This document shows, in pieces, positions 3,504 through 64,000 of a DNA stretch of 64,000 nt (positions are counted from its first letter, which is position 1; each line of letters begins with the position of its first letter). This DNA is from an uncultured Gammaproteobacteria bacterium (GTDB lineage: Bacteria > Patescibacteriota > Microgenomatia > JALYQM01), in the NCBI GenBank assembly GCA_964403585.1, contig CAYOFQ010000001.1, positions 1,280,826 through 1,344,825 of the forward strand, written 5' to 3'. The notes below the pieces were generated by a model. That model was not told the DNA's origin, did no database searches, and saw only the letters and a list, made by a program, of their open reading frames with translations. The translations under genes were made by a program, and so were the position numbers.

Positions 3504-3535
3504 CAAAATTTACGCTCAATAAATACCCCATAGTA

Positions 3536-9528: not shown

Positions 9529-9538
9529 TCTTAATTCG

Positions 9539-41498: not shown

Positions 41499-41578
41499 GG
41501 GCTCGTAGTTTAGTGGTACGAATTAGGGACTAATTCGCACCGCGTTCCATCGCAGGGGTCCGATTCCCCTCGAGTCCA
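41499..41578 (+). tRNA. Non-canonical 80-nt tRNA-like element (possible degenerate or unusual tRNA-Ser(GGA)-like gene)
   Basis: Good acceptor stem (GGGCTCG/CGAGTCC, one G-U), T-arm AGGGG-TCCGATT-CCCCT and a GG-containing D-loop, but the central arm is a 6-9-bp palindromic hairpin CGAATT-AGGGACT-AATTCG whose loop lacks U33/R37; lies 27 nt upstream of tRNA-Pro. Confidence 0.35.
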
Positions 41579-41605: not shown

Positions 41606-41681
41606 CGGGGACTAGCTCAGTTGGTAGAGCGCAGCGTTCGGGACGCTGAGGCCGTGAGTTCGAGTCTCACGTCTCCGACCA
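41606..41681 (+). tRNA. tRNA-Pro (anticodon CGG)
   Basis: Acceptor CGGGGAC/GTCTCCG, D-arm GCTC-AGTTGGTA-GAGC, anticodon stem CAGCG/CGCTG with loop TTCGGGA (CGG), T-arm GTGAG-TTCGAGT-CTCAC, encoded CCA. Confidence 0.85.
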
Positions 41682-41761
41682 AATGTTCCCCATCCCCCGT
41701 TGACAACACCTCAAAATTTCACCTACAGTAGTACTAGTACTATTTGCATAAAATTTTCTTT

Positions 41762-43057: not shown

Positions 43058-43065
43058 AGGTAATA

Positions 43066-46472: not shown

Positions 46473-46933
46473 TTTATAACCGGCGCAAGAAATACATCTG
46501 AGCTTATAGTGACGGTTTCAATAGAAGTAGAAATAACCTCGCTCTCGCTAAAAACAGACTGCCCAAGTGCTCCATAATCGGCAATCTCTGTGGGAGATAA
46601 TTCGACTTCACCTCCTACACGCAAAGTATAAGTACTATTTGGCAAAGACTCAAATAACGCTACCCCATCATCATTTATCGCCGCGCTTACGGCATAGTTC
46701 TTGGTCGTGTCCATGAACTCTACTCGAAGGTTTTTCTGCCCTGGTGCTAATACCCCATATTTAAGGGGCAAATAAGGAAGTTTTTTTACTACCTTTACCT
46801 CAACTCGCGAGAACGGCCGCACGGTAGCTTCTTTATAAATATAGTTGGACACATTTTTGGAAAACATGAACAAATCCGGCATAAACCAGAGAAAACAAAA
46901 CATGAGAATATAGGGAATCAAACTTTTGATCAT
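46469..46933 (-). CDS. Membrane-anchored hypothetical protein (154 aa)
   Basis: N-terminal TM, beta-rich extracytoplasmic part; overlaps the CapA-like start by 4 nt (operon). Confidence 0.4.
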   Translation of the reverse strand: MIKSLIPYILMFCFLWFMPDLFMFSKNVSNYIYKEATVRPFSRVEVKVVKKLPYLPLKYGVLAPGQKNLRVEFMDTTKNYAVSAAINDDGVALFESLPNSTYTLRVGGEVELSPTEIADYGALGQSVFSESEVISTSIETVTISSDVFLAPVIK

Positions 46934-46955: not shown

Positions 46956-48029
46956 CTAGACAGCTAATTCGTCAATAACAGTTTTAATACAAGAAATAAA
47001 TTGAGTACGGGAAAATTTTTCTGACTGTCTGCGACACACTTCCGCATTGAGCAATAATGACTCATAACGCTTCACTGCAGTAAGCAGACTTTCTGTTGAT
47101 AACGTATCAAAAAAAACACCGGTTACGCCATCAACAACAGTCTCAAGTACCCCGCCCTTTTTATATGCAATAACACCGTGTCCATACGACATACTCTCAA
47201 CCGGAGTAATTCCAAAATCCTCTTCGTTACAAATAACAAGTGCTTTACAGTGTTTATACAAGTTATTACGTTTATCATCATCGGCATCAGTAACAAAGTT
47301 TATGGTATCACCGGCTATCGAACGCAGAAATGCAAGTTCATCACCCTTGCCCACTACAACCAGCGGCAGCCGATACTCGGTAAAACAACGTACCGCTAAG
47401 TCAATATTCTTGTTGGGAACCAACCGGGAAACAAGTAAATAGTACTCCCCTGCAGGATAAATTTCTGAAACAGGTGGTAACTCAACCGGCGGATAAATTA
47501 CCTCAGCGCGTACTCCATAGTATTTTTGAATCCGATCGGCAACATAATGCGACAACGTGATATAACGATCCGGTAACTGGGCAGACAGAAAATCCTGTCT
47601 TCGCAAGTATGATTTCTGCATACCGGTCAATAAAATCTCTAATCCATTACGTTTTTTTCTACGAGGCAAAAAGTGATACAACATATCAGCAGGAGAATAC
47701 TGATAACACAGATGTTTTACTTCAACCGGGCAAAGAACCATTTTTGCAAAAAGTGAATCGGAAGAAATAACTAAATCGAATTCACTCAGATCGATTGCTG
47801 CCATTCTACTTACTAAATATGGTGCATACAGTTGCGGGTAATTCCTGATCCCGGGGAGACTACCGGCAAGCGAGGTAATATCATAACCACTCCAGTAATT
47901 TGGAAATACTGACGAATCATACCCTAAAGTAAAAACCTGGGCTTGGGGGAAAATTTCTAAAAAAACCTCCAGAACCCTTTCCGCACCACCGTATTGATAA
48001 AGAAAGTCATGTATTATTACTACTTTCAT
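46956..48029 (-). CDS. Glycosyltransferase family 4 (GT-B)
   Basis: MKVVIIHDFLYQYGGAERV N-terminus and C-terminal GT1/GT4 donor-binding region. Confidence 0.8.
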   Translation of the reverse strand: MKVVIIHDFLYQYGGAERVLEVFLEIFPQAQVFTLGYDSSVFPNYWSGYDITSLAGSLPGIRNYPQLYAPYLVSRMAAIDLSEFDLVISSDSLFAKMVLCPVEVKHLCYQYSPADMLYHFLPRRKKRNGLEILLTGMQKSYLRRQDFLSAQLPDRYITLSHYVADRIQKYYGVRAEVIYPPVELPPVSEIYPAGEYYLLVSRLVPNKNIDLAVRCFTEYRLPLVVVGKGDELAFLRSIAGDTINFVTDADDDKRNNLYKHCKALVICNEEDFGITPVESMSYGHGVIAYKKGGVLETVVDGVTGVFFDTLSTESLLTAVKRYESLLLNAEVCRRQSEKFSRTQFISCIKTVIDELAV

Positions 48030-48035
48030 AATTGT

Positions 48036-48845
48036 CTACATTTTCTGCTTGATGCAGGTAATATGTACCCCTGCACCCGGAAACCACCATAGTAAACTGG
48101 ACTCTATGTACCATACTAGGCTGACCAGTGATTTAATAACAGTCAGGACGAGCGATAAAACCCCCTGTTTGGAACCGATACTGCCTTCCAGCGAGTTCTC
48201 CAACCGTTTACCGGATAGTGTTAAATACCAATAATACAGGAGATCTCCAATCTGATTAATAGGATGGCAACTCCAATAGACTTCTTTTACTTGTAATCCG
48301 GCTAAGGTACTCATCGCAATAAGCTGTGCTCTGGTTAATTGCTGGATATGACCGGCAGTCTTCTCTTTTAAATTGATACCTTGTCGATTGAGAAACCCGT
48401 GCAAAGTCAGCGCTTCCCCTTCACACGGAACATACGCATGCAATACACCACCGGGCTGCAGTACCCGCGCGGCCTCTTTCAAACAAACTTCAGGGTCTTG
48501 TACATGTTCAAGTACGTCAAAAAAGCACACTATGGCGAAGGAATTATCAGGGAAAGGTAACTTCTCTGCCGGAGCAACTGAAAGATGGAGACGTGGGAAA
48601 CGGCGTTGTCCTTCACGAATTGCTGCTTCACCGATATCTACTCCGTATAGTTCTAAATAAGGACGATATTTTCGTAATGCCTGTAAATTTCCTCCCGCAC
48701 CGCAACCGACTTCCAAAACTTTACCGTATACTCCCTGTATGCTGGCTAGAAAATAGGAAAACCGCAATCCTGCCAGAGAAAAAGGAGACGCTGAAACTAC
48801 AGCCGTCCCCCATACTTTCGATTGATAATCAAATTCGGTCTTCAC
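48036..48845 (-). CDS. Class I SAM-dependent methyltransferase
   Basis: Motif I VLEVGCGAGGNL, motif post-I LYGVDI, LQPGGVL. Confidence 0.8.
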   Translation of the reverse strand: MKTEFDYQSKVWGTAVVSASPFSLAGLRFSYFLASIQGVYGKVLEVGCGAGGNLQALRKYRPYLELYGVDIGEAAIREGQRRFPRLHLSVAPAEKLPFPDNSFAIVCFFDVLEHVQDPEVCLKEAARVLQPGGVLHAYVPCEGEALTLHGFLNRQGINLKEKTAGHIQQLTRAQLIAMSTLAGLQVKEVYWSCHPINQIGDLLYYWYLTLSGKRLENSLEGSIGSKQGVLSLVLTVIKSLVSLVWYIESSLLWWFPGAGVHITCIKQKM

Positions 48846-49372
48846 AGATCTACAAAGCCTTCCATCAATTGCCGTAACTGATCAATATCATCATAGTAAT
48901 GATCGTTTCCCTCAATTTCCTGGAGTGAATACCGCTGTACATTTTTATCCATCAACAGATTTTTAAGATCCGGAGCTGAAATAGCCGGATCCTGCGATTT
49001 TTGAATAAATAAAGTTGGAACGGAGTAGTTAATGAGCCAATTATCTAAATCATAGCCACGCTCATATCCCCAGTTAACAGCACTTCCAACAAAAATACAT
49101 ACCTCCGGATCAAGTACCCCTTCATAGATTCCATACAACGCTAAAAGCACTCCCGCAGACTTTGCAAACACAACATACGTATCAAATTGTTCAACAGTTG
49201 CAGCTAGTTTGTCTAACTCAACTTCCAAATCAATTTCCCCTGCATCAGAACTCCACCAGTGATCATAATAATGAATTGCGGTTTGTTTAAACGAAGGAGA
49301 GAACACAGTATCAATACTGTCTATCCAGGCTTTATTCGACTTGTCATTTCCGGGCAATAAAATAAGATTCAT
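48842..49372 (-). CDS. Small alpha/beta-hydrolase-fold protein (putative serine hydrolase/esterase)
   Basis: 176 aa; VVFAKSAGVLLAL nucleophile-elbow-like motif, His/Asp candidates near C-terminus. Confidence 0.5.
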   Translation of the reverse strand: MNLILLPGNDKSNKAWIDSIDTVFSPSFKQTAIHYYDHWWSSDAGEIDLEVELDKLAATVEQFDTYVVFAKSAGVLLALYGIYEGVLDPEVCIFVGSAVNWGYERGYDLDNWLINYSVPTLFIQKSQDPAISAPDLKNLLMDKNVQRYSLQEIEGNDHYYDDIDQLRQLMEGFVDL

Positions 49373-49383
49373 ATCACTTCCTC

Positions 49384-49411
49384 TTGCCTCATTATATCAT
49401 CTTCCCTATAC
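49384..49411 (+). promoter_or_regulatory. Sigma70-like promoter TTGCCT-16-TATACT for the GT-C gene
   Basis: TTGCCT 49384-49389, TATACT 49406-49411, ATG at 49422. Confidence 0.5.
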
Positions 49412-49421
49412 TACAGACATT

Positions 49422-51077
49422 ATGGCAACGACTCCCGACGGCTACTATGAAGACGATGAAGTAAGACCGCCAACCACACCAGACTTACTTCAGACCACCG
49501 AAACTCACAAAAAGAAAATAAGTAAAAAAACAATAATTATTGCTGCGATTTTGTTCGTAATTGCCTTAACCGCCAGACTCTACTTTTTTACTATTGCGAC
49601 AGACGCCGACAATCCGGGAGCAGGCTGGTTTGGGGACTCGTATCATCACTGGCAGATCGGCTATTTAACCAAAGAAATTGGGCTGCACAACGGTTTCCTG
49701 AGGGTTTGGGACTTAAAAGGCATGGATCTGTTCTGGGGACTGCTCCACCCGCTCACACTGGCATTCTTGTTCACAATTACCGGTAACTCGTCAATGTGGA
49801 TGGTCCGCGCCATGACGAGTGTCGCCGGCGCCATAACCGTCGTACTGATCTACGCATTAGGGAGAAAATATTACAACGAAAAAGTAGGTATTGCGGCGGC
49901 CTTATTTACTGCTTTGTGTTCAGTCGTAATATTTAACGACGCGACCGGGATGGTCGAACCCCTCGGGATTCCTTTCCTGCTTGGTGGTATTTACTACTGG
50001 CCCAAAAAACCGTTTATTGCCGGAATCCTCCTGGGACTTGCCATGATGACACGCTCGGAATTCTGGGTGTTCAGCCTCGGACTGACTGCTGCTTTTATTA
50101 TTTTCGACCGTGCAATTCATACAGATAAAAAAGTACTACTGGTTTTTGGTTTACTATTAGTCCTCGGACCGTATATGAAATACTTACTGGACTACACCGG
50201 TAATCCCATCTATCCGCTCTACCAAAATGTAGACAAAAATATCCAGGGAGAGTGGCAATACAAACAAGCACTGGATTCCAAAGATCTGTTCGGGCAATTC
50301 GCGTTTAGAGTAATTACCGCTATAACCGTGTTTGGTATAGCAATAACCCTATGGAGAAAACCCAGAGGATGGCAATGGCATCTTATGGGCCTGGGGAACT
50401 GGTTGTTTTTAGGGTTAACCTTTGGATTTTCTGAATACATCAAATCCTGGGCCGACTATGTTTGGGTAGTTCGTTTCATGCTGTACCCATATACATTCTT
50501 ATGTATTCTCTTTGCGGCAATACTTTTTTATTACATCCCCTCTCGAGCACGTTTTCTAAACAACATTGTTGGTACTGCCCTCGCCAGTATCGTTCTTCTG
50601 GCCGCTATTGGAGCTACGCATCTCGTATGGCCGGAGATTTTTAAGTATTACAACCCAACTCAGGCCACCTGGGAAAATGTTAAACGAGTCTCTAAAGATT
50701 TGCTCACTGATTACAAAGGCGGCGGGATCTTAATGATTGAAGGGAATCCGGATATCACCTATGCATTTGTAAAATTATACGGTGTTGAAGGCAAAAACCT
50801 AGTGAGTCAGATGTATGACCCATACTACTATTTTGAACAAAATAACGTCGATCCGTATGCCAACTGGAATTCCGTAGACCCGCTTAATCCTGAAGGAATG
50901 ACCTACCGTGATCAAGTACTCTATTTCTTTAAGAAGAACAAAATTAAATTTATGGTTACCTATAGTGAACGGGATCGGTATACAAAACTGTTTGCACTGG
51001 AACCAAACCTGGCCCAAAAAGCAAGTGGAACATACGGTAATTTAGTAACTTATACAATCAATTCAGATTCACTATAA
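49422..51077 (+). CDS. GT-C-fold membrane glycosyltransferase (ArnT/PMT-like), putative
   Basis: About 12 TM helices with a first extracytoplasmic loop carrying DADNPGAGWFGDSYHHWQ and a C-terminal soluble domain; start at ATG 49422 (the track TTG rejected). Confidence 0.5.
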   Translation: MATTPDGYYEDDEVRPPTTPDLLQTTETHKKKISKKTIIIAAILFVIALTARLYFFTIATDADNPGAGWFGDSYHHWQIGYLTKEIGLHNGFLRVWDLKGMDLFWGLLHPLTLAFLFTITGNSSMWMVRAMTSVAGAITVVLIYALGRKYYNEKVGIAAALFTALCSVVIFNDATGMVEPLGIPFLLGGIYYWPKKPFIAGILLGLAMMTRSEFWVFSLGLTAAFIIFDRAIHTDKKVLLVFGLLLVLGPYMKYLLDYTGNPIYPLYQNVDKNIQGEWQYKQALDSKDLFGQFAFRVITAITVFGIAITLWRKPRGWQWHLMGLGNWLFLGLTFGFSEYIKSWADYVWVVRFMLYPYTFLCILFAAILFYYIPSRARFLNNIVGTALASIVLLAAIGATHLVWPEIFKYYNPTQATWENVKRVSKDLLTDYKGGGILMIEGNPDITYAFVKLYGVEGKNLVSQMYDPYYYFEQNNVDPYANWNSVDPLNPEGMTYRDQVLYFFKKNKIKFMVTYSERDRYTKLFALEPNLAQKASGTYGNLVTYTINSDSL

Positions 51078-51120
51078 TTCCATGTTGACTGAGCAGGGAT
51101 AAACCCCTACTCTGTACCCT

Positions 51121-51969
51121 ATGTCCGAATTTAGCGGCCACACCAAATGGCAAGCCGATCACTATAATAGTTCACCTCCCCTAAGTCCTTTTGAACCATT
51201 ACTACGAAAAATCGGCTATGCCAAAGTACTTCGGCCTAAGGATCTGGTTACTAAGCAATACTTGGAAAAATGTAACATCGATTCGTCCACCAAAATTTTA
51301 GATGTCGGTTGTGCCTCAGGAGTCTTACTTCAACGGATTCAGGTAACATTCCACGGACAGGGCACCGGAATTGATGTTTCGGAAGTACTAATCAGAAAAG
51401 CACAACAGGAAAATCCGGAAAACACCTACCTTCTTGCTGATGCAACAACCCTACCTTTTCCGGATAACTCATTTGATGTTGTCACAAGTTGCGATAATTT
51501 AGAACATATTCAGGAATACCGGCAAGTAATAAAAGAAATGGTCCGCATACTCAAACCGGGAGGAAAGCTTATTTTAAACTCGATCAATAAAAATAATAAA
51601 TACACCATCGACTGGCTGCTTGAAAAAATCGGTACTGATTATCATCTGAAGCGTGCCGGCCATGTAAAGGAACTTTTTTTTAATCCGGTGGAAATTGAGC
51701 AACTTTTCAACAAAGAGGGACTTACCAATACGAACACCCATCTTTTTGATGCCACTACATTAATTATATTTAATTCAGCATTATATATTTTTCTTATGGC
51801 AAGTGAATTTATTGCCAGAAATACAAACTACCCGCTTGTTGGCCACGCGGCTCTTTCAATTACTGATTTTCTGAGTAAAATATCACTTCCATTTCTGGAG
51901 AAAGTTGATACACTAGTAACACAGAGAGGTTACTCTAATGCTTTTTTCTTAACAGGAGAGAAGAAATAA
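51121..51969 (+). CDS. Class I SAM-dependent methyltransferase with C-terminal hydrophobic segment
   Basis: ILDVGCASGVLLQ motif I, LKPGGKLIL; TTGACT-17-TACTCT boxes at 51086-51114. Confidence 0.75.
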   Translation: MSEFSGHTKWQADHYNSSPPLSPFEPLLRKIGYAKVLRPKDLVTKQYLEKCNIDSSTKILDVGCASGVLLQRIQVTFHGQGTGIDVSEVLIRKAQQENPENTYLLADATTLPFPDNSFDVVTSCDNLEHIQEYRQVIKEMVRILKPGGKLILNSINKNNKYTIDWLLEKIGTDYHLKRAGHVKELFFNPVEIEQLFNKEGLTNTNTHLFDATTLIIFNSALYIFLMASEFIARNTNYPLVGHAALSITDFLSKISLPFLEKVDTLVTQRGYSNAFFLTGEKK

Positions 51970-52884
51970 ATGTCGATACTGCCCGCGTTAAAGCAATTAT
52001 ATAAGAACAAAGGATCACTCGGTGTTCTCGAATGGATCTACGACAAGAAGCGTTTCACCTTCATCAAGTGGTTTTTAAAGACCTGCTTCTATATATTTCC
52101 CTATGAGGAAATCCTGAAAACTACCGCTAAATATAACGAGAACATACCTGTTAAAGGTTTTACTAATAGCACTCGTGAATATTTACAGCAGCTTAATATA
52201 CTAACCGATCGGGACACGCCACTTTCGATTACCGGCGGAGCACTAATATTTGGCAATCATCCAACCGGACTTGATCCGTTTCTTATTACCTCATGTCTCA
52301 ATCGTGAAGATATTTACATCGTTGCAGATGTATACCAAAAAAATAAAGGCAATTATATTGGCCGACATATTGTGCCTATTATATATGCCCGCACCCAAAG
52401 AAATCTTAACAATCGGGGATTTCTAAACTCGATTGGATTCTATGTAATGAGACTTTTAACCGGCTATGAAGCACCTGAACAGGTTAAAATTCAAAACGAA
52501 CAAACAGTCAAACAAGCAGCGCAATTATTAATCGACGGGCATATCGTAATAATTTTTCCTGACGGTGGCAGCAATAATCCTGAATTATGGTACAACGGAA
52601 TTGGAGACATTCTAAAAAAGACTTCCGTAGAAGAAAAAGATATTAAACTCTTTGCTACCCAAATATCAGGTATTTCAACCTCAAGGTTAATTAGACACTT
52701 TCTGTGGAATAAAAAAATATTCCTTAAGAAGAATCCTATTCATATAACACTCTCCGAACCATTAACTATGGAAATGCTTAATATTAAAACAACTGATGGT
52801 AGTCATGAAATAACCGAACGACTGAGAATGGAATTCGTAACTAAATCACTTTGGGCACCTAACTATGTCTACAATCGATCCTAA
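51970..52884 (+). CDS. Lysophospholipid/glycerol-3-phosphate acyltransferase-family (PlsC-like) acyltransferase
   Basis: FGNHPTGLDP (HX4D acyltransferase motif) and downstream FPDGGSNNP (motif III-like). Confidence 0.6.
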   Translation: MSILPALKQLYKNKGSLGVLEWIYDKKRFTFIKWFLKTCFYIFPYEEILKTTAKYNENIPVKGFTNSTREYLQQLNILTDRDTPLSITGGALIFGNHPTGLDPFLITSCLNREDIYIVADVYQKNKGNYIGRHIVPIIYARTQRNLNNRGFLNSIGFYVMRLLTGYEAPEQVKIQNEQTVKQAAQLLIDGHIVIIFPDGGSNNPELWYNGIGDILKKTSVEEKDIKLFATQISGISTSRLIRHFLWNKKIFLKKNPIHITLSEPLTMEMLNIKTTDGSHEITERLRMEFVTKSLWAPNYVYNRS

Positions 52885-54151
52885 AAGCGTTCGCATAGCT
52901 TTTTTTCATCTCGCCTTTTTGTATTCGGGAGGAGGAGAAAAACTTGCCTTAAAAGAGGTTGAATTACTCCGGCAAAAAGGATATCTGGTCGATTGCTATA
53001 CTCCATTACTTGACGAAAAAGAGTGTTTCCCCGATCTAATCAATAAATATGAAGTAAAGGAAATAATAAAAGGATTTACCAAACTATGGAAAAACAAGCC
53101 TGAAATAGGCGTAATCGTAACCGTACTGCTATTCCCTTTCATTTCATACCGGTTCAAAAATTATGATTTGGTAATCGGGGCCAACCAGCCTGGCCCTGTT
53201 TTTGGCTACATACTCAAGAGACTGTATAAAATCCCGTATATTATCTATATCGCCCAACCGACAAGAATGATCTACACCAGAAAAGTTGACCGGGAACATG
53301 GATATAAACTAAAAAACCAGATTAAATGGCTCCCCCATTTCATAAATATATTACGACCACTCTTTTTTTGGGTTGACCTGAAGAGTATTGCCTGCGCCGA
53401 TACCTTCTTTTGTAATGGTAAGTATATGCAGGACATTCTGGGTAATGTTTATGGACGCACTCCAATCCTCTGCCCGGCAGGAGCGGAAACAAGCAACACG
53501 CAAGCTACGAAAGACCCTCTATTTACATTTAGAGGTGTACCAATTCCTAAACCGTTTATATTTCTGTCCAATCGGCACTTCGCCCATAAAAAATTTGAAT
53601 ATGCTCTTGAAGCGTTGGATCTTCTTAAAGTCAAAGTCCCGTTATTGATAGCTGGAAAACCAACAGATTATACCGACGATCTGAAAAAACTTGTACGGTA
53701 TTACAAATTAGAGGCATATGTGCATTTTTTGGGGTATGTAACCGAAACAGAGCTCGACGAGCTATATACCAATTGTCAGGTATATGTGTATACCGCTCCG
53801 GAAGAAGATTTTGGCATGGGGATTGTTGAAGCCATGGCCTATCAGAAACCGGTTGTTGCATGGAATCACGCCGGTCCATCGCGCATAATTAGTCATCAAC
53901 TGAACGGCTTCTTAGCCGAACCAAATCGAATTGATCAGTTTAAAGAATATATTGAATATGCTTTAGGAAACTCCAGGCAAATCCGGGACATTGGTTTGAA
54001 TGCTGCCAACACGGTAAAGTTAGAATACTCCTGGGAAAACCACATCAGCCAGTTTGAAACATATATTCAAAAGAATATTGCTGAATCTCAAGAACAACCG
54101 GCCTTACTCACCGACACTCTTTCCGTACTCGATATAAATAATAATCATTAA
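52865..54151 (+). CDS. Glycosyltransferase family 4
   Basis: EEDFGMGIVEAMAYQKPVVAWNHAGP (E-x7-E retaining GT-B signature). Confidence 0.8.
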   Translation: MSTIDPKSVRIAFFHLAFLYSGGGEKLALKEVELLRQKGYLVDCYTPLLDEKECFPDLINKYEVKEIIKGFTKLWKNKPEIGVIVTVLLFPFISYRFKNYDLVIGANQPGPVFGYILKRLYKIPYIIYIAQPTRMIYTRKVDREHGYKLKNQIKWLPHFINILRPLFFWVDLKSIACADTFFCNGKYMQDILGNVYGRTPILCPAGAETSNTQATKDPLFTFRGVPIPKPFIFLSNRHFAHKKFEYALEALDLLKVKVPLLIAGKPTDYTDDLKKLVRYYKLEAYVHFLGYVTETELDELYTNCQVYVYTAPEEDFGMGIVEAMAYQKPVVAWNHAGPSRIISHQLNGFLAEPNRIDQFKEYIEYALGNSRQIRDIGLNAANTVKLEYSWENHISQFETYIQKNIAESQEQPALLTDTLSVLDINNNH

Positions 54152-55700: not shown

Positions 55701-55762
55701 AAAAGTTAGGTTATTATAGCAAAGGCTTGACTGCATAATAAGAACGCTATACCCTGCTTCAT

Positions 55763-57448: not shown

Positions 57449-58900
57449 TTACAAACTCACCTCTTTAATTTTGTATTCAAATATCGATTTGTCCGGAGAA
57501 TTATCGAGGCATTTTTGGGCCAGAGCAAAAGCCATCTCGATACTATTATCAGAATTGTTATATCTAAAGATCCCTGTTCTACCGAGTAAATAAACCGAGT
57601 CTGTCTCCAGGAATGCAACTATTTTTTGGAGCCTCTTTTTGTATTCAAGATCATATACCGGATAAGCGTAGCGTATCCGTTTAACAAATGAACCGCTAAC
57701 TTTGGAACGTTGAAAAAGCCCAATTCGAGCTCCAGACTCAATACATTCAATGACATGCTGTTCATCACTTTTACTCCACTTACTATCATCAAAATAACAG
57801 GTAATATCTAAACATAAACATGTTTTCCCCTCGGGAGCCATTTTTTTTGACCAGTTTGTAAATTCTACCGAACGATTAAAGGGAATCTCCGGATCAGGGA
57901 AATACATCCAGTGATCATTGGAAACATGATCCTGATCCAGGAACAAGTAAACAAAGATAATATCCATATACTTTGTCTCTGATAAAAATTGAGCTATATC
58001 TGTAGATTTCTTATCTTGCAGATCATATAACATTTTTAGGGGAATAGTCGAAATTACAGTCCCATACTCAACGCAATATTCTTCTCCTTGGAAAGAATAC
58101 TTTACCTGCTTTAAATTTTTATTAAGCGAAGTCATCGTTGCCGAAGTAAGAACATCTCCTCCTCGGGCAACAAGATCGGCGGCAAACGCATCAGGCAGTT
58201 CTTGTATACCCATATCAGGATAGAAAAATTCTCCTCCATCGGGAGCAAGGGAATCGTCCTCTAAATCATAGCGCGAAAAATCAAGGCTCAGCAATTTTCT
58301 TACTGCTCGCTTAATCAGGCGCTGCAGATTTTCACCGCTAAAACGTGCATCTGCCCAATCTGCCGAAATTAACCCCGGATCCATTCCCCAAATTTTGGAA
58401 GTGTACCGGTAACACATTACCTCATAAAGACGACGGCCATAGTAATAAGTAAACCAGTCTTTATATGATTGCACCTCCCGCGGTTTATTCCGCTGCTTGA
58501 ATCTGTTAAGTAAGTAATCGGCACTGCTTAAAACAGCTTCATGAAAAGGCATTGCTCGCAATAAGTTAGTTAACTCGAAAGGGTATTTAAGATATTTTCC
58601 ATACAAATAGATACGGCTTTTTTTGATATGCTTGTTCATTTTCAGGCCAGGCAGAGTCGTAATTGTATGCAATAGTTCCTGGTTCTTAGTGTGAAATCTG
58701 TGCGCAGAAAAATCCATTAAAAACCCGTCATGCTCTAAAGTCCGGCTCAATCCACCCACTACCGGCTCCTTTTCTAAAACAAGCACAGTTTTACCGTTTT
58801 TGATCATTTTCCAGGCAAACGACAATCCTGCAACTCCGGCTCCGAGTATGACATAATCATATTTTTTTATTTCCATTGGATAAGATACTCCTCTAAACAC
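57449..58900 (-). CDS. FAD/NAD(P)-binding oxidoreductase (amine-oxidase / UDP-galactopyranose-mutase-like fold)
   Basis: YDYVILGAGVAGLSFA dinucleotide-binding motif, LEKEPVVGG; 483 aa; function inferred from context only. Confidence 0.6.
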   Translation of the reverse strand: MFRGVSYPMEIKKYDYVILGAGVAGLSFAWKMIKNGKTVLVLEKEPVVGGLSRTLEHDGFLMDFSAHRFHTKNQELLHTITTLPGLKMNKHIKKSRIYLYGKYLKYPFELTNLLRAMPFHEAVLSSADYLLNRFKQRNKPREVQSYKDWFTYYYGRRLYEVMCYRYTSKIWGMDPGLISADWADARFSGENLQRLIKRAVRKLLSLDFSRYDLEDDSLAPDGGEFFYPDMGIQELPDAFAADLVARGGDVLTSATMTSLNKNLKQVKYSFQGEEYCVEYGTVISTIPLKMLYDLQDKKSTDIAQFLSETKYMDIIFVYLFLDQDHVSNDHWMYFPDPEIPFNRSVEFTNWSKKMAPEGKTCLCLDITCYFDDSKWSKSDEQHVIECIESGARIGLFQRSKVSGSFVKRIRYAYPVYDLEYKKRLQKIVAFLETDSVYLLGRTGIFRYNNSDNSIEMAFALAQKCLDNSPDKSIFEYKIKEVSL

Positions 58901-59763
58901 GTTTGCCAGGGACGCATTGTATATAAACCTAATTCTTTTAAATGTGCAGGTACAAGCTTTTCTGACCAGGGACGAATAGCATAAAAATCTTTTAAACTTT
59001 CATGATTGGAAGTAACCCTATGAAGCACGATATCTTCTCTCCCAAGCTGAGACAACATAAATCTGGCTACATCATAACGGCTCGCTTCCCCCTGACAAAT
59101 AGTATGAAAAACGCCGTAAGCGTCATGAGACACCACTTCAAAAATATTTCTGGCCAAATCATGAGTATATGTCGGTGTTCCCACTTTATCATCGACTACA
59201 TACAAATCTGTATCACCGGCAGTAATCTTCTTCATCAACTTACTGACAAACTTTTTATCTTTGCGCGGTCCGCCCCCCATCATCCATCCTGCCCGAAACA
59301 TAAAGTGACGCGGATATGCACGGATATACTGCTCTCCTTCAAATTTTGATTTTCCATAAACATTCAGCGGATTGGCAATATCATCTTCAACATAAAATTC
59401 CCTGGTACCATCAAAAATACCTGCAGTACTGATATGCACTACCGGTAGATTCTTTTCCGCACAAATCTCAACCACGTTCTTACAACCCAATGCGTTTACT
59501 TCATACGCCTCACGTTCATGTTGCTCGCAATATTCTAAATCAGTCAATGCCGCGAGATTAACTACCAAATCCGGCTTAAATTCATTTATTTGTTTGTTAA
59601 GTAATTCTTTATCACGGACATCTGCGTAGGAAAGAAACTGATCATTCAAATCAATATCCGTTGCAAAAAACTGATAGTTTCCAGACATAGCCTTATAAAA
59701 AGCTTCGCCCAACATTCCCCCACATCCGGTTAAGTAAATACGAGTTTCATTATTCAATTGCAT
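58867..59763 (-). CDS. NAD(P)-dependent sugar-nucleotide reductase, RmlD (dTDP-4-dehydrorhamnose reductase)-like
   Basis: IYLTGCGGMLGEAF Rossmann motif, about 298 aa RmlD-like size and SDR-type Y-x3-K region. Confidence 0.55.
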   Translation of the reverse strand: MQLNNETRIYLTGCGGMLGEAFYKAMSGNYQFFATDIDLNDQFLSYADVRDKELLNKQINEFKPDLVVNLAALTDLEYCEQHEREAYEVNALGCKNVVEICAEKNLPVVHISTAGIFDGTREFYVEDDIANPLNVYGKSKFEGEQYIRAYPRHFMFRAGWMMGGGPRKDKKFVSKLMKKITAGDTDLYVVDDKVGTPTYTHDLARNIFEVVSHDAYGVFHTICQGEASRYDVARFMLSQLGREDIVLHRVTSNHESLKDFYAIRPWSEKLVPAHLKELGLYTMRPWQTCLEEYLIQWK

Positions 59764-59797
59764 ACTGTATATATATCATTATTAGTAAAACAGTAAC

Positions 59798-60916
59798 ATG
59801 AGAATCTTAATTGTACATCCCCACCTTAGTTTTCGTGGATCCGAACGCGTTGCACTACACCTTGCCAGAGGGTTGAAGGAAAGCGGTCATGACCCGCTGA
59901 TCTTCTTCACAAAAAAAGATCCTGCCTTACCTTATTCTGAGATACCGAATTACTGTAAATTCCCTCATCAAATTATCAATACGATTTTCCAAAATAATTA
60001 TATTTATTTAGTCTTAGTTCTACCGGTAACACTGCTATATATCTTATATTACGCACGTAAAGCTGACTATATCGAAACTGAGGGATTTCCGTGCCTGTGG
60101 CCAAGTTGGGTAGTAGCAAAACTGTACCGCCAAAAAATTATTTGGATAGTGCATGCACTTGAAAGTTCTGAAATATATTTCAAGTTTATATCTATTATTG
60201 ACCACTTACTCGTACCTGCTATTTCGGCCGCCGTAACAGTCTCACCACAAACAGAGCGAAAAGTTAAACAACAATATCCGGGCTTAACCGTTCATATGCT
60301 TATTCCACCCATCAATACCGATAGACTCAACAATCCGCACCCCGGATTAATCCGAAATAAATATAATTTGAAGCAAAATAAAATAATACTTTCTGTAGGG
60401 ATTCTTCACCCCAAAAAGAATCAGCAGCTGGCAATTATCTGCCTAAGCAAATTAAATAAAATATTCCCTAATCATACACTGATCATCGTAGGCGGAGGTA
60501 ACACTGAGGCATTATCCCGGCTGGCCAATACCTTAGGAGTTGGGAACCGCGTGATTTTCGCGGGAATGGTTGATGACACAGAAATTAAAGAATACTATTG
60601 TGACAGCGACCTGGTACTCATAACCTCTAACTCTGATCAGGAGGGATTAGGTATTACTGCCTTTGAAGCATTCTACCTAAAGAAAATGTGTCTAACTACG
60701 AAAGAATCCGGCGTGAGCGAAATTATGCAAAGTCATAACTTTGGTTTAATCGCCCCATCCAATCCGGAATCTTACTCACTCTGTATAAATAAGTATCTAT
60801 CCCATCCGGATAACTACGCAACAAACATAACTGCCGGGAACAGCTTTGTCACCAATAACCTGCTAATTTCCCAATACACAAAGAAATTTTTAGAGTTACT
60901 TAATAATGTGGCATAA
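59798..60916 (+). CDS. Glycosyltransferase family 4
   Basis: C-terminal EGLGITAFEAFYLKKMCLTTKESG GT-B motif. Confidence 0.75.
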   Translation: MRILIVHPHLSFRGSERVALHLARGLKESGHDPLIFFTKKDPALPYSEIPNYCKFPHQIINTIFQNNYIYLVLVLPVTLLYILYYARKADYIETEGFPCLWPSWVVAKLYRQKIIWIVHALESSEIYFKFISIIDHLLVPAISAAVTVSPQTERKVKQQYPGLTVHMLIPPINTDRLNNPHPGLIRNKYNLKQNKIILSVGILHPKKNQQLAIICLSKLNKIFPNHTLIIVGGGNTEALSRLANTLGVGNRVIFAGMVDDTEIKEYYCDSDLVLITSNSDQEGLGITAFEAFYLKKMCLTTKESGVSEIMQSHNFGLIAPSNPESYSLCINKYLSHPDNYATNITAGNSFVTNNLLISQYTKKFLELLNNVA

Positions 60917-62021
60917 TACTTTTATGAAATATGGTATTACAGTTCTTTCCCTGGTCCTGTTTGTTTCTATCGGTTATTTCTATAAAACATACACCAACGC
61001 GTTACGCAAGTTGGATCCACAGAGTGGAGCCACACAAGTTCTCTCAGCAACGGATAACCATCTTATGAACGTGGATAGCAGTATCACTCACTCCAACCTC
61101 TATTCCCCTTCAGATCTAAAAGCACAAGACATTTCAGCAACAACAATCAAACTAACATGGAAATTCCCCAAAAAAGAAATCGTAGTCGCTACCGGCTTAC
61201 CTCCACAATACGGAACACTATCAGGATATCGTATCTACAGAGACGGATTTTGGTACCAAGACATCCCGTTAATCCAGGATGAATTCATAGACAGCAACTT
61301 ACTCCCGGATGAAGAATACCGCTATATAATTTCCGCACTTACCTTTGACAACAAGATTGAAGGTTCAAAAAGCGCCGAGCTGGCTTCACGGACTCGTCAA
61401 GGAAACCCCGTATCTCCCATAGTTTTCAAACCAAAACAAATCAGTACATACCTGGCTGAAGGCGATAGTATTACTGAAGGTCAACGTGCCGCCAAAAACC
61501 GGGGGTGGGTTGATCAGGTAAGTGGCTATTTGGCAAAGAAAAATTCGGGTCTTGAGACGGTAAATTACGGACTTACCGGATCAACAAGTGATCACGTACG
61601 AAGTCGTCTTCCCCAGGAACTCGCAACTTCCAGCGCCGATCTGGTAACCATAGCTGTTGGACTTAATGATCTCTACGGGGCAAGTCGTGATATTGGCAAT
61701 GTCAGTATAGCCGCTTATAAAAACAATTTGGAGCAAATTATTGATAAAGCGGGACCTTCGGAAAACCGACTGGTCCTGCTCCTGACAATTTATTACTTCC
61801 GTGATTGCTGCAAGCAGGAATTCAACAAGGTTGACGCCTGGAATAAGGCAATTCACGAAGTTGGATACACTAAAAAAATCGGGGTCATTGATGCATTTCA
61901 GGCAATGAAGGATGCCGGAGAAGAAAAAACCATGGACGACATACTGCACCCCAACCAGGACGGGCATGATACTATTGCTAAAGTAGCAATTGAAACCATC
62001 AGGAAATATAGCGAACAGTAA
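60906..62021 (+). CDS. Membrane-anchored fibronectin-III + SGNH/GDSL hydrolase (putative glycan O-acyl esterase)
   Basis: N-terminal TM, FN3-like LKAQDISATTIKLTWKFP, then SGNH blocks AEGDSITEG (block I), GLNDL (block III), DILHPNQDGHD (block V DxxH). Confidence 0.7.
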   Translation: MWHNTFMKYGITVLSLVLFVSIGYFYKTYTNALRKLDPQSGATQVLSATDNHLMNVDSSITHSNLYSPSDLKAQDISATTIKLTWKFPKKEIVVATGLPPQYGTLSGYRIYRDGFWYQDIPLIQDEFIDSNLLPDEEYRYIISALTFDNKIEGSKSAELASRTRQGNPVSPIVFKPKQISTYLAEGDSITEGQRAAKNRGWVDQVSGYLAKKNSGLETVNYGLTGSTSDHVRSRLPQELATSSADLVTIAVGLNDLYGASRDIGNVSIAAYKNNLEQIIDKAGPSENRLVLLLTIYYFRDCCKQEFNKVDAWNKAIHEVGYTKKIGVIDAFQAMKDAGEEKTMDDILHPNQDGHDTIAKVAIETIRKYSEQ

Positions 62022-63150
62022 TATGTACAAATTAGCTTTAGTAAGAGATAGCCGGATCTCGGCTCTGGATCATTATAAATTTCTTAAAAACTTTGACATT
62101 AACTTCATTTCAGGTAATAGCAACCCTCATATTGCTGAACGATACAAACTCCCGAACAATGTCCGCATCACCAATCTTAAACTCATTAATCCCCTGGGTA
62201 TTGATCCTATTTCGTTACTTGGCAGCAACGCCACCAATCTGGCCTGGAATTACTTTGCTGATTTAGAACAGGAACTCAGGGGAAGTGACCTCATCGGTAT
62301 CTCAGACAATTATTATTTCTGGAATTATCAGACTATCAAATTTGCCAAGAAAAATAATATACCGGTTTTCACTATTCTCTGGTGTAACATCCCGAATCAT
62401 ATCTCTACCTGGTTGCCTCCCTACGCACAAATAACCCGGGAAGTGATCGATTACACATCATTATTTATTTTGCGCAATAACAAGGCCTTAGAATTGACCG
62501 ACTCTCTAAAAATTCCCCGTTCCAAAGTAAAGGTCATTTACAAAGGAATCGACCTGACGAGATTTAAACCACGCGCAACAACTTATACCAATCCACTCAA
62601 TATTCTCTATGTGGGGAGACTAGAAAAATCCAAAGGGGTGACCGATATTATCGCAGCCTTTAGCCTACTTCATCGAAAGTATCCCGATACGACCTTGACC
62701 GTTGCGGGTCGGGGTTCATTAACTCAAACGGTAATAACCGCAGCCGAAACTCTACCAATTAATCTTCTGGGCTTCGTTGAATATTATCGCCTTCCGGAAA
62801 TCTATCAACAAGCCGATATTTTCTGTTCGCCCAGCAAAACTTCGTATTTATTAAATATTCCAATTACAACCGAATATTTTTCGTATACACTAATGGAGGC
62901 TCAAGCTGCTGGCCTGCCAATTGTCGCTACCGAAATGGGTGGAATCCCGGAGGAAGTCGACCCCAGAAACTTCTTAGTAGAGGAAGGAAATATCGGCCAG
63001 ATCTATGCAGCACTCGAAAAACTTGTCGTGAACCATGAATTACGGAAAACATTGGGTAAGATAAACCGGCAACGTGCGCTCGCTATCTTTGATACACAAA
63101 AACAGGCTCATGAAACAGAACAGGCTCTATTGAATTTACTAAATGCCTGA
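61990..63150 (+). CDS. Glycosyltransferase family 4
   Basis: EYFSYTLMEAQAAGLPIVATEMGGIPE E-x7-E motif. Confidence 0.75.
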   Translation: MKPSGNIANSNMYKLALVRDSRISALDHYKFLKNFDINFISGNSNPHIAERYKLPNNVRITNLKLINPLGIDPISLLGSNATNLAWNYFADLEQELRGSDLIGISDNYYFWNYQTIKFAKKNNIPVFTILWCNIPNHISTWLPPYAQITREVIDYTSLFILRNNKALELTDSLKIPRSKVKVIYKGIDLTRFKPRATTYTNPLNILYVGRLEKSKGVTDIIAAFSLLHRKYPDTTLTVAGRGSLTQTVITAAETLPINLLGFVEYYRLPEIYQQADIFCSPSKTSYLLNIPITTEYFSYTLMEAQAAGLPIVATEMGGIPEEVDPRNFLVEEGNIGQIYAALEKLVVNHELRKTLGKINRQRALAIFDTQKQAHETEQALLNLLNA

Positions 63151-63194
63151 ACCCTTTTCTATCCATCACCGGTATTGTAAGCTAATACGTATTG

Positions 63195-64000
63195 ATGAAA
63201 GAAAAAAAATTCTCACTTCTTAATCTATTTGGAAAAACCTTCAATATCACCATACAAACTGCGTTACTTTTCGCCGGGTTAGGAATTATTAGTGGAGTAT
63301 TTTATCTCATTTGCTGGAATTATATTATTACGCCGGAGATCTTTGGTACGGATACGGTAAGTGCATTTGACTACGTAGTTTGGCTAAATAGATTCTTTCC
63401 TTCAATTCCCTACTGGTATCCCATTCAGGGAGTAGGGATCTCATTTTATGCAGGATATCCCTGGTTTTCGCATTACCTGGTAGTGCTCATAAGTAAATTA
63501 ACCAATCTGCAGCTTATTAGCGTATTTAATTTACTCCAAGCTGCTTCATTCCTAACAACTGCGGTAGGGATTTTTCTGTATTGCTGGACAAGAATGCGCT
63601 ATCCTGCACAAGGTATCGCCCGTCAAATTATCGGTATAATTGCGGCACTATTTTATCTCATCTCTCCAATCACCTATATTTGGGCATATCAATGGGGGTT
63701 TTATGCAGAGTCGGTTTCGTATATGTTCATAATGCCCACCATCCTGTTTGCCGACTGGTTCATCGACTTAAGCTTCAGATATAAAGATACCCTCCGCAAA
63801 CGGTTTGCACTCGTCGTAACAGTTTTCTTTTTTTTCATAGCATTCATGACTCATTTCCAGGCTGGCCTGGGACTTTCCCATTTTATTATTCTCTTCATAA
63901 TTGGCCGGACACTGCTTGCCCTTCGACACTATGGAAAACCTGCTCTGAAACGCGGACTGCTTACCCTCCTCCTGATTTTTATCCCGTTAGCAGGATTATT
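63195..64000 (+). CDS. Polytopic membrane protein (possible GT-C/YfhO-like), 3'-truncated by window edge
   Basis: ATG at 63195; frame stays open to the window end; highly hydrophobic multi-TM sequence. Confidence 0.45.
   Translation, partial: MKEKKFSLLNLFGKTFNITIQTALLFAGLGIISGVFYLICWNYIITPEIFGTDTVSAFDYVVWLNRFFPSIPYWYPIQGVGISFYAGYPWFSHYLVVLISKLTNLQLISVFNLLQAASFLTTAVGIFLYCWTRMRYPAQGIARQIIGIIAALFYLISPITYIWAYQWGFYAESVSYMFIMPTILFADWFIDLSFRYKDTLRKRFALVVTVFFFFIAFMTHFQAGLGLSHFIILFIIGRTLLALRHYGKPALKRGLLTLLLIFIPLAGL

Follow-up and report, generated by a model that had tools for sequence, protein, structure and literature searches.

The arabinogalactan and lipoarabinomannan (LAM) of mycobacteria and corynebacteria are made by a cast that comprises WecA, RmlD, Glf, DPPRS/UbiA, a PAP2 phosphatase, DprE1/E2, the Aft/Emb GT-C enzymes and Lcp1. 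In Citrobacter youngae O1/O2, a polyprenyl phosphoribose synthase, a flippase and a GT-C together add pentofuranoses outside the membrane, and the identity of the pentose is set by an epimerase of the short-chain dehydrogenase/reductase (SDR) type (ORF13) or by DprE1/E2 (Kelly et al. 2024, PMC11127046). In Gram-positive wall polymers, multi-component transmembrane glycosylation is carried out by a GtrB/CsbB-type GT2, a GtcA flippase and a YfhO-type GT-C (reviewed in PMC8035078). Here we describe a locus that, by analogy, appears to work like surface-glycan loci of this sort, in which cytoplasmic Leloir enzymes are joined to extracytoplasmic GT-C steps. It occupies positions 45,366 to about 66,560 in the numbering of a 64,000-nucleotide stretch of contig CAYOFQ010000001.1 (the window), and so runs past the end of that stretch. 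Our reading, to which we assign a probability of roughly 0.7, is that it is a multi-operon locus that produces and decorates a lipid-linked cell-surface glycan in a Patescibacteria (Microgenomates-like) host. A locus of this type is ordinary and expected rather than surprising; its conserved core, which spans several phyla, is so far uncharacterised.

The locus consists of 17 contiguous open reading frames (ORFs) running from 45,366 through the end of the window, with gaps of -44 to +62 bp and a coding fraction of 98.6%. A glycan or envelope assignment was made for 15 of these 17 consecutive genes, compared to about 20% of the remaining genes in the window (binomial P 3e-9), and the block is syntenic in four close relatives. 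The initial annotation, which was made from the letters and their translations, had proposed a tightly packed envelope glycan or glycoconjugate locus extending beyond the window, and all of this is borne out. The extension past 64 kb came from an identical public contig (L001), reached by an exact-protein match of the carbamoyltransferase; exact-protein look-ups with the last GT4 (which has a TTG start) and with a UvrD-like gene gave no match. On L001 the final gene of the locus closes at a window-equivalent position of about 66,560, giving a size of about 21.2 kb. Two genes come after it, one of 206 aa and one of 258 aa of which the contig has the start, neither with a Pfam match on record.

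The left border lies at 45,366, not at 46,956 as first drawn. A CapA-like gene, at first described as sitting upstream, and a gene for a 154-aa protein (h154) are on the same strand as the glycosyltransferase gene GT4a and overlap or abut its operon, so that they are that operon's last genes, in the order h176>MTa>GT4a>h154>CapA on the minus strand. The locus as a whole has seven strand-defined gene blocks and therefore at least seven transcription units. Promoter and terminator scans found sites no more numerous than in shuffled sequence, and the units were therefore inferred from strand and spacing alone. Two of the junctions are unusually tight: the convergent 3' ends of GT4b and mem530 share 44 bp (54108-54151), and the convergent carbamoyltransferase and flavoenzyme genes abut at 57448-57449 with zero gap, leaving no space for terminators.

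Abutting the locus on its left side, with a gap of 2 bp to the CapA gene, is a plus-strand pair (41744-45363) of genes, one for a periplasmic binding protein and the other for a histidine kinase with dCache, HAMP and PAS domains. The pair has the same position in all four close relatives, and there is no response regulator beside it. It may represent a regulatory link to the glycan locus.

The genome is small, a single contig of 1,573,555 bp, and the organism is also present in the sequencing runs SRR16481186 and SRR16481187. Every named top match of its RecA, with identities of 72-76%, is to the Patescibacteria group, Daviesbacteria or Microgenomates, and on the evidence of this protein the organism is placed in the Patescibacteria near the Microgenomates. 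The remainder of the window contains a wall toolkit of Gram-positive (monoderm) type, namely MurJ (above its equivalog cut-off), a FemAB-like protein, an LCP ligase, a WecA/MraY-family enzyme, Wzy_C, PAP2 and GlmS, and no lipopolysaccharide (LPS) genes were found in the window. This agrees with the early description of a reduced genome with no LPS pathway in view. The Patescibacteria, or candidate phyla radiation (CPR), account for much of bacterial diversity, and mostly they live attached to other cells. Few have been cultured, and CPR surface chemistry is consequently almost unknown. The locus offers a CPR surface-glycan gene set. Its seven-gene core can be followed into other phyla, and its decoration genes, which vary between strains, are of a type on which serotype, phage sensitivity or host recognition usually depends.

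The locus was compared with those of the four close relatives (L061, L084, L085 and a JGI contig), of two distant members of the CPR (L086 and L087), and of two bacteria outside the CPR (L088, a Dormibacterota metagenome-assembled genome (MAG), and L089, a genome of 3.35 Mb). A comparison of synteny had been suggested from the outset. All four close relatives have the locus at the same chromosomal place, beside recA and the periplasmic-binding-protein/histidine-kinase pair, and all retain the h176-MTa(-GT4a)-h154-CapA operon, PMT2 and the triad MTb-AcylT-GT4b. The genes that are shuffled, swapped or missing among them are mem530, the carbamoyltransferase CarbT, the FAD-SDR pair, an FkbM-type methyltransferase and the SGNH esterase. 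In L086 and L087 the locus is condensed to GT4b, PMT2, a fused MTa+MTb protein, AcylT and a homologue of mem1121, with a GT4d homologue following the mem1121 homologue directly in L087 and two genes later in L086. The fused two-domain methyltransferase is encoded at 11646-13283 in L086 and at 9131-10735 in L087, with MTb as the second half. Because the two methyltransferases are fused there, while in the window they belong to separate, divergent operons, we argue that MTa and MTb act together. Outside the CPR, L088 has GT4b-PMT2 followed by a mem1121-like N-terminus, and L089 has GT4b-PMT2-MT-MT with a mem1121-like gene further downstream.

On this comparison the locus resolves into a seven-gene core (GT4b, PMT2, MTa, MTb, AcylT, mem1121 and GT4d) and a swappable accessory set (mem530, CarbT, the FAD/RmlD-like pair, GT4c and the SGNH esterase). 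In the window the core genes are distributed along the full 21 kb, and the accessory genes are inserted between them. The combination of GT4, GT-C and methyltransferase genes is shared by CPR and, in part, by Dormibacterota and one other lineage.

An obvious question is whether these are parts of one system, or an island in which the conserved core is independent of a side-chain or serotype module that varies between strains (mem530, CarbT, FAD-RmlD, GT4c and SGNH), the two being co-located systems with different products. The existence of seven strand-defined blocks fits an island, as does the unequal conservation, with PMT2 at 57-81% identity and mem530 at 34-40%; furthermore, the accessory genes do not occur in the loci of L086-L089, and the mem530+FAD pair is found alone in unrelated contexts (L003, L005 and L006). 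However, the accessory genes are interleaved with the core in the window, rearrangement in L061 and L085 has not moved them out of the locus, and there is no second initiating or export machinery. O-antigen and capsule loci, too, normally include variable modification genes within a single locus. We therefore consider independent systems rather unlikely. The early proposal had named separate, unrelated transcription units with differing conservation as the finding that would count against a single locus. Separate units with differing conservation are indeed present, but since the core is compact in the distant relatives and MTa and MTb are fused there, the units are not unrelated. As far as gene order can tell, they make up one conserved system together with a variable decoration set.

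Candidates for several of the functions expected of a wall glycan lie elsewhere in the window. A second envelope neighbourhood at 10136-30730 contains genes for Wzy_C, an alginate-lyase-like protein, PAP2, a FemAB-like protein, a SpeE-like methyltransferase, a DPPRS-like UbiA protein, a WecA/MraY-family enzyme, MurJ and an LCP ligase, and it may be the source of the initiation, donor and ligation steps for the glycan locus. Three of these genes, all on the minus strand, are candidate partners, as judged from their family matches. The first encodes a DPPRS-like UbiA-family polyprenyl-phosphate phosphoribosyltransferase (20061-21008), which scores 215.4 bits against NF008978 (cut-off 207) and matches the solved DPPRS (PDB 8j8j) at E 1e-34. 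It adjoins the second, for a WecA/MraY-family polyprenyl-phosphate sugar-1-phosphate transferase (20972-22048; PF00953, E 1.6e-23), whose best NCBIfam match (89 bits, well under the cut-off) is to WecA, and it lies near the PAP2 gene. The third encodes an LCP-family glycopolymer-to-peptidoglycan ligase (29462-30730; PF03816, E 1e-26; TIGR00350, 86.7 bits versus 62.3). The DPPRS homologue would supply a lipid-linked pentofuranose donor for a GT-C. The scanned window genes include no GT2 polyprenyl-phosphate-sugar synthase, and the DPPRS product is therefore the sole GT-C donor with a visible biosynthetic gene. The WecA-family product is a possible initiating enzyme.

Together, the DPPRS homologue, the WecA-family gene and the LCP ligase point to a furanose-containing polymer linked to the wall. 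The cell wall is accordingly the acceptor that we prefer, tentatively and at somewhat less than even odds. In the wall version of the pathway, synthesis would start with the WecA-family enzyme (21-22 kb), at least one GT-C would use polyprenyl-phosphate-pentofuranose made by DPPRS (20-21 kb), and the polymer would be ligated to peptidoglycan by the LCP protein (29.5-30.7 kb).

There are clear similarities here to the systems mentioned above, but also clear differences. Like the three-component pentofuranosylation of Citrobacter, the window has a DPPRS homologue above its NCBIfam cut-off, the locus has GT-C with an acidic residue after the first transmembrane helix (TM1) and a C-terminal outside domain, and its SDR could serve as the epimerase. 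Unlike that system, the synthase is some 25-29 kb from the locus GT-C, in another operon, with no adjacent MATE/GtrA flippase, and the presence of three probable GT-C and many cytoplasmic GT4 is more than a side-chain add-on. The resemblance to arabinogalactan and LAM synthesis is that the 64-kb window holds a WecA-family enzyme, a DPPRS-like enzyme, PAP2, a flavoenzyme related to UDP-galactopyranose mutase (UGM), an RmlD-like SDR, several GT-C and an LCP ligase. In contrast to arabinogalactan and LAM synthesis, the window has no GlfT-type GT2 or DprE1-family (FAD_binding_4) enzyme, the flavoenzyme is of PRK07208 type and not Glf, the GT-C have no sequence relation to Emb/Aft, additional methyl, acyl and carbamoyl decoration is encoded, and the host is a CPR bacterium and not an actinobacterium. 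The locus is therefore a member of neither system, because the synthase is unlinked, there is no flippase, and there is no homology to DprE1, GlfT, Emb or Aft. The transmembrane glycosylation of Gram-positive polymers (PMC8035078) is similar in that GT-C finish wall or lipoteichoic polymers outside a monoderm membrane and are recognised mainly by structural homology. It differs in that no GT2 synthase or GtcA/GtrA flippase is present in our locus or window, and in that GT-C here are core genes and not add-ons.

The best-conserved gene of the locus is PMT2 (49422-51077, plus strand; alternative start TTG at 49341), a core gene whose product is a GT-C of the PMT_2 family (PF13231, 44.2 bits versus a gathering threshold of 26.1) with eight hydrophobic segments in a simple hydropathy scan. 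It is 79, 81 and 57% identical to its counterparts in L061, L084 and L085 (tblastn), 83% identical to protein P0032 of L084, and 63% identical to the JGI protein. Identities fall to 44-47% in L086 and L087, and are 39-47% overall in L086-L089. The profile of the PMT2 family (18 members) matched none of the PDB chains at E<=1, and there is no match to PF02366.

The second GT-C of the core is probably mem1121, a polytopic protein whose N-terminus is in the window (63195-64000, plus strand, ending at about 66560); the full 1,121-aa gene is found at 17433-20798 of L001. It has eight hydrophobic segments in the same simple scan, seven N-terminal and one C-terminal, and Asp53, after TM1, is invariant. 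A match to PF10131 is confined to residues 788-839 and lies just above threshold (28.3 versus 26.4 bits); it is stronger in the L086 orthologue. PF10131 is a member of the Pfam GT-C clan CL0111 (PMC7801869). Comparison with the PMT2 family by hhalign and PDB sequence searches were negative. The hhalign negatives between GT-C families (mem1121 versus PMT2, and mem530 versus PMT2) carry no weight, because mem530 and PMT2 are two true GT-C families and miss each other by hhalign.

The remaining GT-C is mem530 (54108-55700, minus strand), a 530-aa accessory membrane protein, which makes mem1121, with its large extracytoplasmic domain, the probable third of the locus. The hydropathy scan of mem530 gives at least eight hydrophobic segments, and the AlphaFold2 (AF2) model, built from a 15-sequence alignment (pLDDT 86.9), has about 14 helices before residue 420. 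A Foldseek search of the PDB with this model was consistent: 18 of the 19 best matches are GT-C enzymes, namely ALG12, STT3, ArnT (TM-score 0.50), DPY19, EmbA/B, ALG9 and PglB, and 14 of the 19, including the top seven, have a probability of 0.99-1.00. Transporters appear at a probability of 0.28 or less, with one at rank 15. The motif H32-E-M-W-R-D-E38 follows TM1, and E38 is invariant in the 15 sequences. No Pfam match was found even at E<=5, nor an NCBIfam match, and the family profile has no PDB sequence match; one distant homologue carries a match to EpsG. The predicted fold thus identifies mem530 as a GT-C glycosyltransferase of a large unannotated family. Three GT-C-like proteins had been listed at first. 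This holds for PMT2 by Pfam and for mem530 by fold without any family match, while for mem1121 it depends on a PF10131 score just above threshold, the hydrophobic segments and the invariant Asp53.

The presence of these proteins raises the possibility of protein O-glycosylation, in which PMT2 and/or a mem1121 resembling an oligosaccharyltransferase (OST) would transfer a lipid-linked glycan or a polyprenyl-phosphate sugar to S-layer, pilin or other secreted proteins. Parallels would be the actinobacterial PMT pathway, or the archaeal Agl pathway with its OST, second GT-C dependent on dolichyl-phosphate mannose, and methyltransferase. PMT2 matches PF13231, a homologue of it is annotated as glycosyltransferase family 39, and it has a weak match to the archaeosortase-associated STT3. 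The build of mem1121, with many transmembrane segments and a large outside domain, is OST-like; STT3 and PglB are among the fold matches of mem530; and the GT4 proteins weakly match Agl16 and PglH/J. S-layers and pili have been reported on CPR cells. Nevertheless, the PMT2 family has no sequence-level relation to solved PMT, ArnT or STT3, a by-eye reading of mem1121 found no WWDYG-type OST motif, and the locus contains no candidate glycoprotein gene. The PMT_2 family also includes lipid- and polysaccharide-directed enzymes, so family membership does not define the acceptor. Protein as the acceptor is, on balance, unlikely.

Four GT4 enzymes of GT-B fold are encoded, not five as initially counted. 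All four have a PF00534 match and an EX7E motif, and none reaches an equivalog-level NCBIfam cut-off. The core enzymes are GT4b (52865-54151, plus strand; E 3.7e-32, EX7E at residue 314) and GT4d (62023-63150, plus strand; E 3.8e-30, EX7E at residue 284). Orthologues of GT4b, 35-37% identical, lie directly upstream of PMT2 in L086-L089, and L086 and L087 also contain orthologues of GT4d, 34-41% identical, in the loci that carry the mem1121 homologue. The GT4b orthologue of L088 (5800-8004) has an LPG_synthase_TM domain (MprF-type flippase) fused to it, and is immediately followed by the PMT2 orthologue. The fusion hints that GT4b makes a lipid-linked sugar, which is flipped for a GT-C.

Next to GT4b are the other two members of the triad. 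MTb (51121-51969, plus strand) is a class I S-adenosylmethionine (SAM) methyltransferase (PF08241, E 1.4e-24) whose C-terminal part contains a hydrophobic segment (residues 208-226). AcylT (51970-52884, plus strand), which belongs to the core within the CPR relatives, is a PlsC/LPLAT-type acyltransferase by PF01553, at a marginal score (26 bits versus a cut-off of 23), and has an HX4D motif (HPTGLD) at residue 97. That AcylT might be a homologue of PatA was also considered and, on sequence grounds, rejected: no similarity to PatA or to a protein of solved structure could be detected, and there is no PDB match.

These genes bear on a further alternative, that the product is a membrane glycolipid or lipoglycan made by the logic of mycobacterial phosphatidylinositol mannosides, lipomannan and LAM. 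The GT4 enzymes would glycosylate a lipid, AcylT would acylate it, and after flipping the GT-C would extend it outside. The adjacency of AcylT and GT4b is kept in all close relatives, and resembles the arrangement of patA and pimA, where PatA acylates beside PimA. Both methyltransferases have a hydrophobic tail, the Dormibacterota fusion of GT4b with LPG_synthase_TM stands directly upstream of PMT2, and DPPRS together with several GT-C parallels arabinan synthesis. There is also an IMPase-family gene at 39140-39967; its best match, however, is histidinol-phosphatase-like and under all cut-offs. In addition, no phosphatidylinositol synthase is in view, and the matches of the GT4 proteins to glycolipid synthases are generic and far under cut-offs. 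We give a lipid acceptor the same minority weight as a protein one, and continue to prefer the wall.

The minus-strand operon at the left end contains further genes retained in close relatives. Its first gene, h176 (48842-49372), encodes a soluble 176-aa protein with invariant S72 (in AKSAG), D128 and H158 in four orthologues, and the order of this Ser-Asp-His triad is canonical. No Pfam, NCBIfam or PDB match was found, and the single-sequence AF2 model has a pLDDT of 42.8. It is possibly a small Ser-Asp-His hydrolase, an unverified candidate. MTa (48036-48845), the other core methyltransferase, is again of class I (PF08241 (Methyltransf_11), E 1.8e-23), and its C-terminal part likewise has a hydrophobic segment (residues 229-247); such a segment on each methyltransferase suggests membrane tethering. 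GT4a (46956-48029; PF00534, E 4.8e-20; EX7E at residue 270) is predicted to use nucleotide sugars and is clade-specific, not being present in the JGI relative. It is followed by h154 (46469-46933), which has an N-terminal hydrophobic segment and orthologues 35-68% identical in close relatives. It has no Pfam or NCBIfam match, and the signals resembling Ig_DR_A0283 and CarboxypepD_reg are all sub-threshold; the protein possibly has an Ig-like or β-sandwich domain. Finally, the CapA-like (PGA_cap) metallophosphoesterase-type protein (45366-46472; PF09587, E 1.6e-48) has one N-terminal hydrophobic segment as its membrane anchor. Its gene overlaps h154 by 4 bp and is syntenic in L061, L084, L085 and the JGI contig.

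The accessory genes lie mainly between GT4b and GT4d. CarbT (55763-57448, plus strand) is an O-carbamoyltransferase of NodU/CmcH/TobZ type, with both domains well matched: PF02543 at the N-terminus (E 1e-59, 202.6 bits) and PF16861 at the C-terminus (E 1e-73, 247.2 bits). Its relatives in the PDB are GdmN, NovN and TobZ, at E values of 1e-83 to 1e-92, and it has no predicted membrane segment. It is not a NodU equivalog, scoring 168.8 bits against NF041651, where the cut-off is 1000. A parallel is the decoration of Nod factors by NodS and NodU, in which a class I SAM methyltransferase and a carbamoyltransferase of the NodU/CmcH superfamily likewise decorate a sugar backbone on the cytoplasmic side. 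The differences are that the NodU equivalog score is far short, the NodS match is weak, and there is no NodC chitin-oligomer synthase. The initial annotation had taken GT-C plus carbamoyltransferase as pointing to carbamoylated glycans. This argument is not supported: CarbT is soluble, accessory and not in the distant loci, and the two are independent things. Carbamoylation of the glycan is plausible, but without a tie to the GT-C steps.

That the nearest solved relatives of CarbT are antibiotic-tailoring enzymes (GdmN, NovN and TobZ) could suggest a product that does not belong to the envelope at all, either a cytoplasmic or secreted small molecule such as a carbamoylated, methylated glycoside, or a polymethylated storage glycan like the mycobacterial methylglucose lipopolysaccharide (MGLP) or methylmannose polysaccharide (MMP). 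A set of GT4, SAM methyltransferases, acyltransferase and small hydrolase resembles MGLP/MMP clusters. However, three polytopic proteins of GT-C type with outside domains, an anchored SGNH protein and an anchored CapA-like protein imply chemistry outside the membrane; there are no scaffold-forming genes (polyketide synthase, nonribosomal peptide synthetase or cyclitol); and CarbT is accessory, not core. A non-envelope product is thus very improbable.

The flavoenzyme and SDR genes form a minus-strand pair that overlaps by 10 bp. The FAD/amine-oxidase-type enzyme (57449-58876) is related to UGM and of PRK07208 type. Its best solved relative is the UGM of T. cruzi (PDB 4dsg), in a full-length alignment at E 4e-23, and it retains the His loop and the FNR, AYP and RYNN motifs. 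It is not Glf: TIGR00031 scores 68.4 bits (cut-off 303.75) over the N-terminal part only, there is no PF03275 match, and in the NCBIfam scan it groups with 'hypothetical' PRK07208 models. It is probably a sugar pyranose/furanose mutase or a related flavoenzyme, to judge from these similarities. The RmlD-like SDR (58867-59763), a reductase or epimerase, matches PF04321 (RmlD_sub_bind) at E 1.6e-62 and has TGxxGxxG and YxxxK motifs; it narrowly misses the RmlD equivalog TIGR01214 (208.2 versus 224.05 bits). E. coli O52 Fcf1/Fcf2 form the pathway to dTDP-D-fucofuranose. By analogy, an overlapping pair of a 4-keto-6-deoxyhexose-type SDR reductase and a UGM-family mutase would here yield a 6-deoxy-hexofuranose. 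Unlike O52, the window has no RmlA or RmlB genes, and the flavoenzyme is of a different UGM-related clade.

GT4c (59798-60916, plus strand; PF00534, E 7e-28; EX7E at residue 282) is variable, its matches in relatives being 23-32% identical at most. The last accessory gene encodes a membrane-anchored, extracytoplasmic SGNH/GDSL esterase (60906-62021, plus strand; PF13472, E 3e-23), with GDS at residue 186, DxxH at 345 and an N-terminal hydrophobic segment. An fn3 domain is probable, although the match, at 17 bits, is sub-threshold. Over the soluble and anchored proteins of the locus, hydrophobic segments are absent from three of the four GT4, CarbT, the FAD enzyme and the RmlD-like SDR. GT4c has two internal stretches, and SGNH, CapA and h154 are anchored at the N-terminus.

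Most of the gene identities first proposed therefore stand: the NodU/CmcH carbamoyltransferase (both domains), the two SAM methyltransferases (two Methyltransf_11 genes), the PlsC-like acyltransferase (at its marginal score), the RmlD-like reductase and the FAD oxidoreductase with a UGM-like fold. Two need qualification. The FN3-SGNH esterase is secure as an SGNH protein, with its fn3 portion below threshold, and the small alpha/beta hydrolase retains the invariant Ser72/Asp128/His158 alone, without a family or structural match to support it.

The protein mem530 evolves fast, being 34-40% identical to its close relatives versus 55-81% for its neighbours. Its family is large: a profile search gave 4,469 representatives of 50%-identity clusters at E<=1e-30 and 6,540 at E<=1e-10, that is, a GT-C family of thousands of sequence clusters without a Pfam or NCBIfam model. 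Neighbourhoods were surveyed in 80 loci from other phyla with a mem530 homologue, obtained by scanning with a 5-sequence alignment a genome collection whose species representatives do not include the present genome. A PRK07208-type flavoenzyme lies within 10 kb of the mem530 homologue in 15 of the 80. The two genes are directly adjacent in L003, L005, L006 (all unclassified or uncultured bacteria) and L061, and CarbT sits between them in the window and in L085. In L003 and L006 the pair has no GtrA/GtrB-type partner and no other glycan-donor genes adjoining it. The family is common in cyanobacteria and Acidobacteriota, with the flavoenzyme within 10 kb in cyanobacterial and Acidobacteriaceae loci, and the cyanobacterial homologues are found in GT2/GT4 clusters with Wzx or ABC exporters. 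Since both genes occur in culturable cyanobacteria too, with orthologues of the flavoenzyme in Calothrix and Chroococcidiopsis, the pairing is a tractable biochemical lead.

In a Granulicella MAG (L079, 9968-12477), dnaK and dnaJ are separated by an insert of two genes, one a mem530 homologue and the other UbiA/DPPRS-like. Two other members of the family have unusual structures. P0177 (1,324 aa) has a mem530 domain fused to a polytopic protein of about 830 aa, with a C-terminal motif that looks YfhO-like by eye; the relatedness of its N-terminal part to mem1121 is not significant. P0237 has many 'ARL(K/E)TAPTA' repeats inserted in its loops.

The links of mem530 to the flavoenzyme and to the UbiA/DPPRS-like gene are a hint of furanose chemistry, and prove nothing. 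A literature search on PRK07208, on CPR envelope glycosylation, and on CPR with DPPRS or arabinofuranose found nothing specific. Taken to its furthest extent, the evidence can be assembled into a scheme in three parts that we regard, as a joint proposition, as improbable and speculative. Firstly, the mem530 family and the PRK07208 flavoenzyme would be an unrecognised two-gene module for extracytoplasmic furanosylation, as part of an arabinogalactan-like, furanose-containing, peptidoglycan-linked heteropolysaccharide made from non-homologous parts. Secondly, this polymer would have a WecA-type start, sugar supplied by the flavoenzyme and SDR, a DPPRS-made polyprenyl-phosphate-pentofuranose donor, three GT-C acting outside, and LCP ligation. 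Thirdly, the GT4b-PMT2-MT-MT-mem1121 core would be an envelope-glycosylation system of CPR, Dormibacterota and possibly Chloroflexota (where homologues are 35-38% identical).

The more general mechanism that we propose for the surface-glycan locus is as follows. On the cytoplasmic face, the four GT4 enzymes would use nucleotide sugars to lengthen a chain of sugars attached to a lipid carrier. The FAD/SDR pair would provide an unusual sugar, whose probable identity is a furanose or a 6-deoxy sugar, and O-methyl, O-acyl and O-carbamoyl groups would be added in the cytoplasm by MTa, MTb and AcylT plus, in this strain, CarbT. The product would be exported by a transporter encoded elsewhere. Outside the membrane the three GT-C would add residues from polyprenyl-phosphate-linked donors, or move the glycan to its final acceptor, and the anchored SGNH esterase and CapA-like phosphoesterase would trim or remodel the product.

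Several results weigh against this reading of the locus. No initiating phosphoglycosyltransferase, flippase, ABC transporter, Wzy polymerase or GT2 polyprenyl-phosphate-sugar synthase was found in 45.4-66.6 kb or in the loci of close relatives, and the export step and the GT-C donors consequently have no gene assigned. Compared with a Wzx/Wzy-, ABC- or synthase-dependent locus, the genes for initiation, export and polymerisation are not in the locus, and the Wzy_C protein, MurJ and WecA-family gene are 23-35 kb away. It had been suggested that a flippase or polymerase might be found past 64 kb, but neither is on the L001 extension, which consists of the rest of mem1121 and the two genes without a Pfam match. 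The DPPRS, WecA-family and LCP genes are about 15-25 kb from the locus and in other operons, and the view is limited to 64 kb of 1.57 Mb. For the sugar supply, the CPR subclade is the only part of the FAD enzyme family to retain the first diphosphate-binding Arg of UGM. Moreover, none of rmlA, rmlB and rmlC was found in the scanned window genes (nearly all ORFs of at least 150 aa) or in the relatives' loci, so that the RmlD-like SDR is no more than a candidate RmlD. Finally, the functional statements rest on membership of families and folds, from which the acceptor (wall, protein or lipid) is not decidable.

Three further features were noted elsewhere in the window. A tRNA-Ile(UAU) is present at 3431-3504 (plus strand), in addition to the normal tRNA-Ile(GAU) at 9538-9612. 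It would allow AUA codons to be read without the lysidine (TilS) route, and is unusual among bacteria. At 41499-41578 (plus strand), just upstream of tRNA-Pro(CGG) at 41606-41681, there is a weak tRNA match, made by Rfam alone (37 bits) and not called by ARAGORN, which could come from a degenerate or otherwise unusual tRNA. A gene at the window's left edge (240-1454, plus strand) encodes a homologue of the TraG/TrwB-like type IV coupling proteins, identified by weak Pfam matches.

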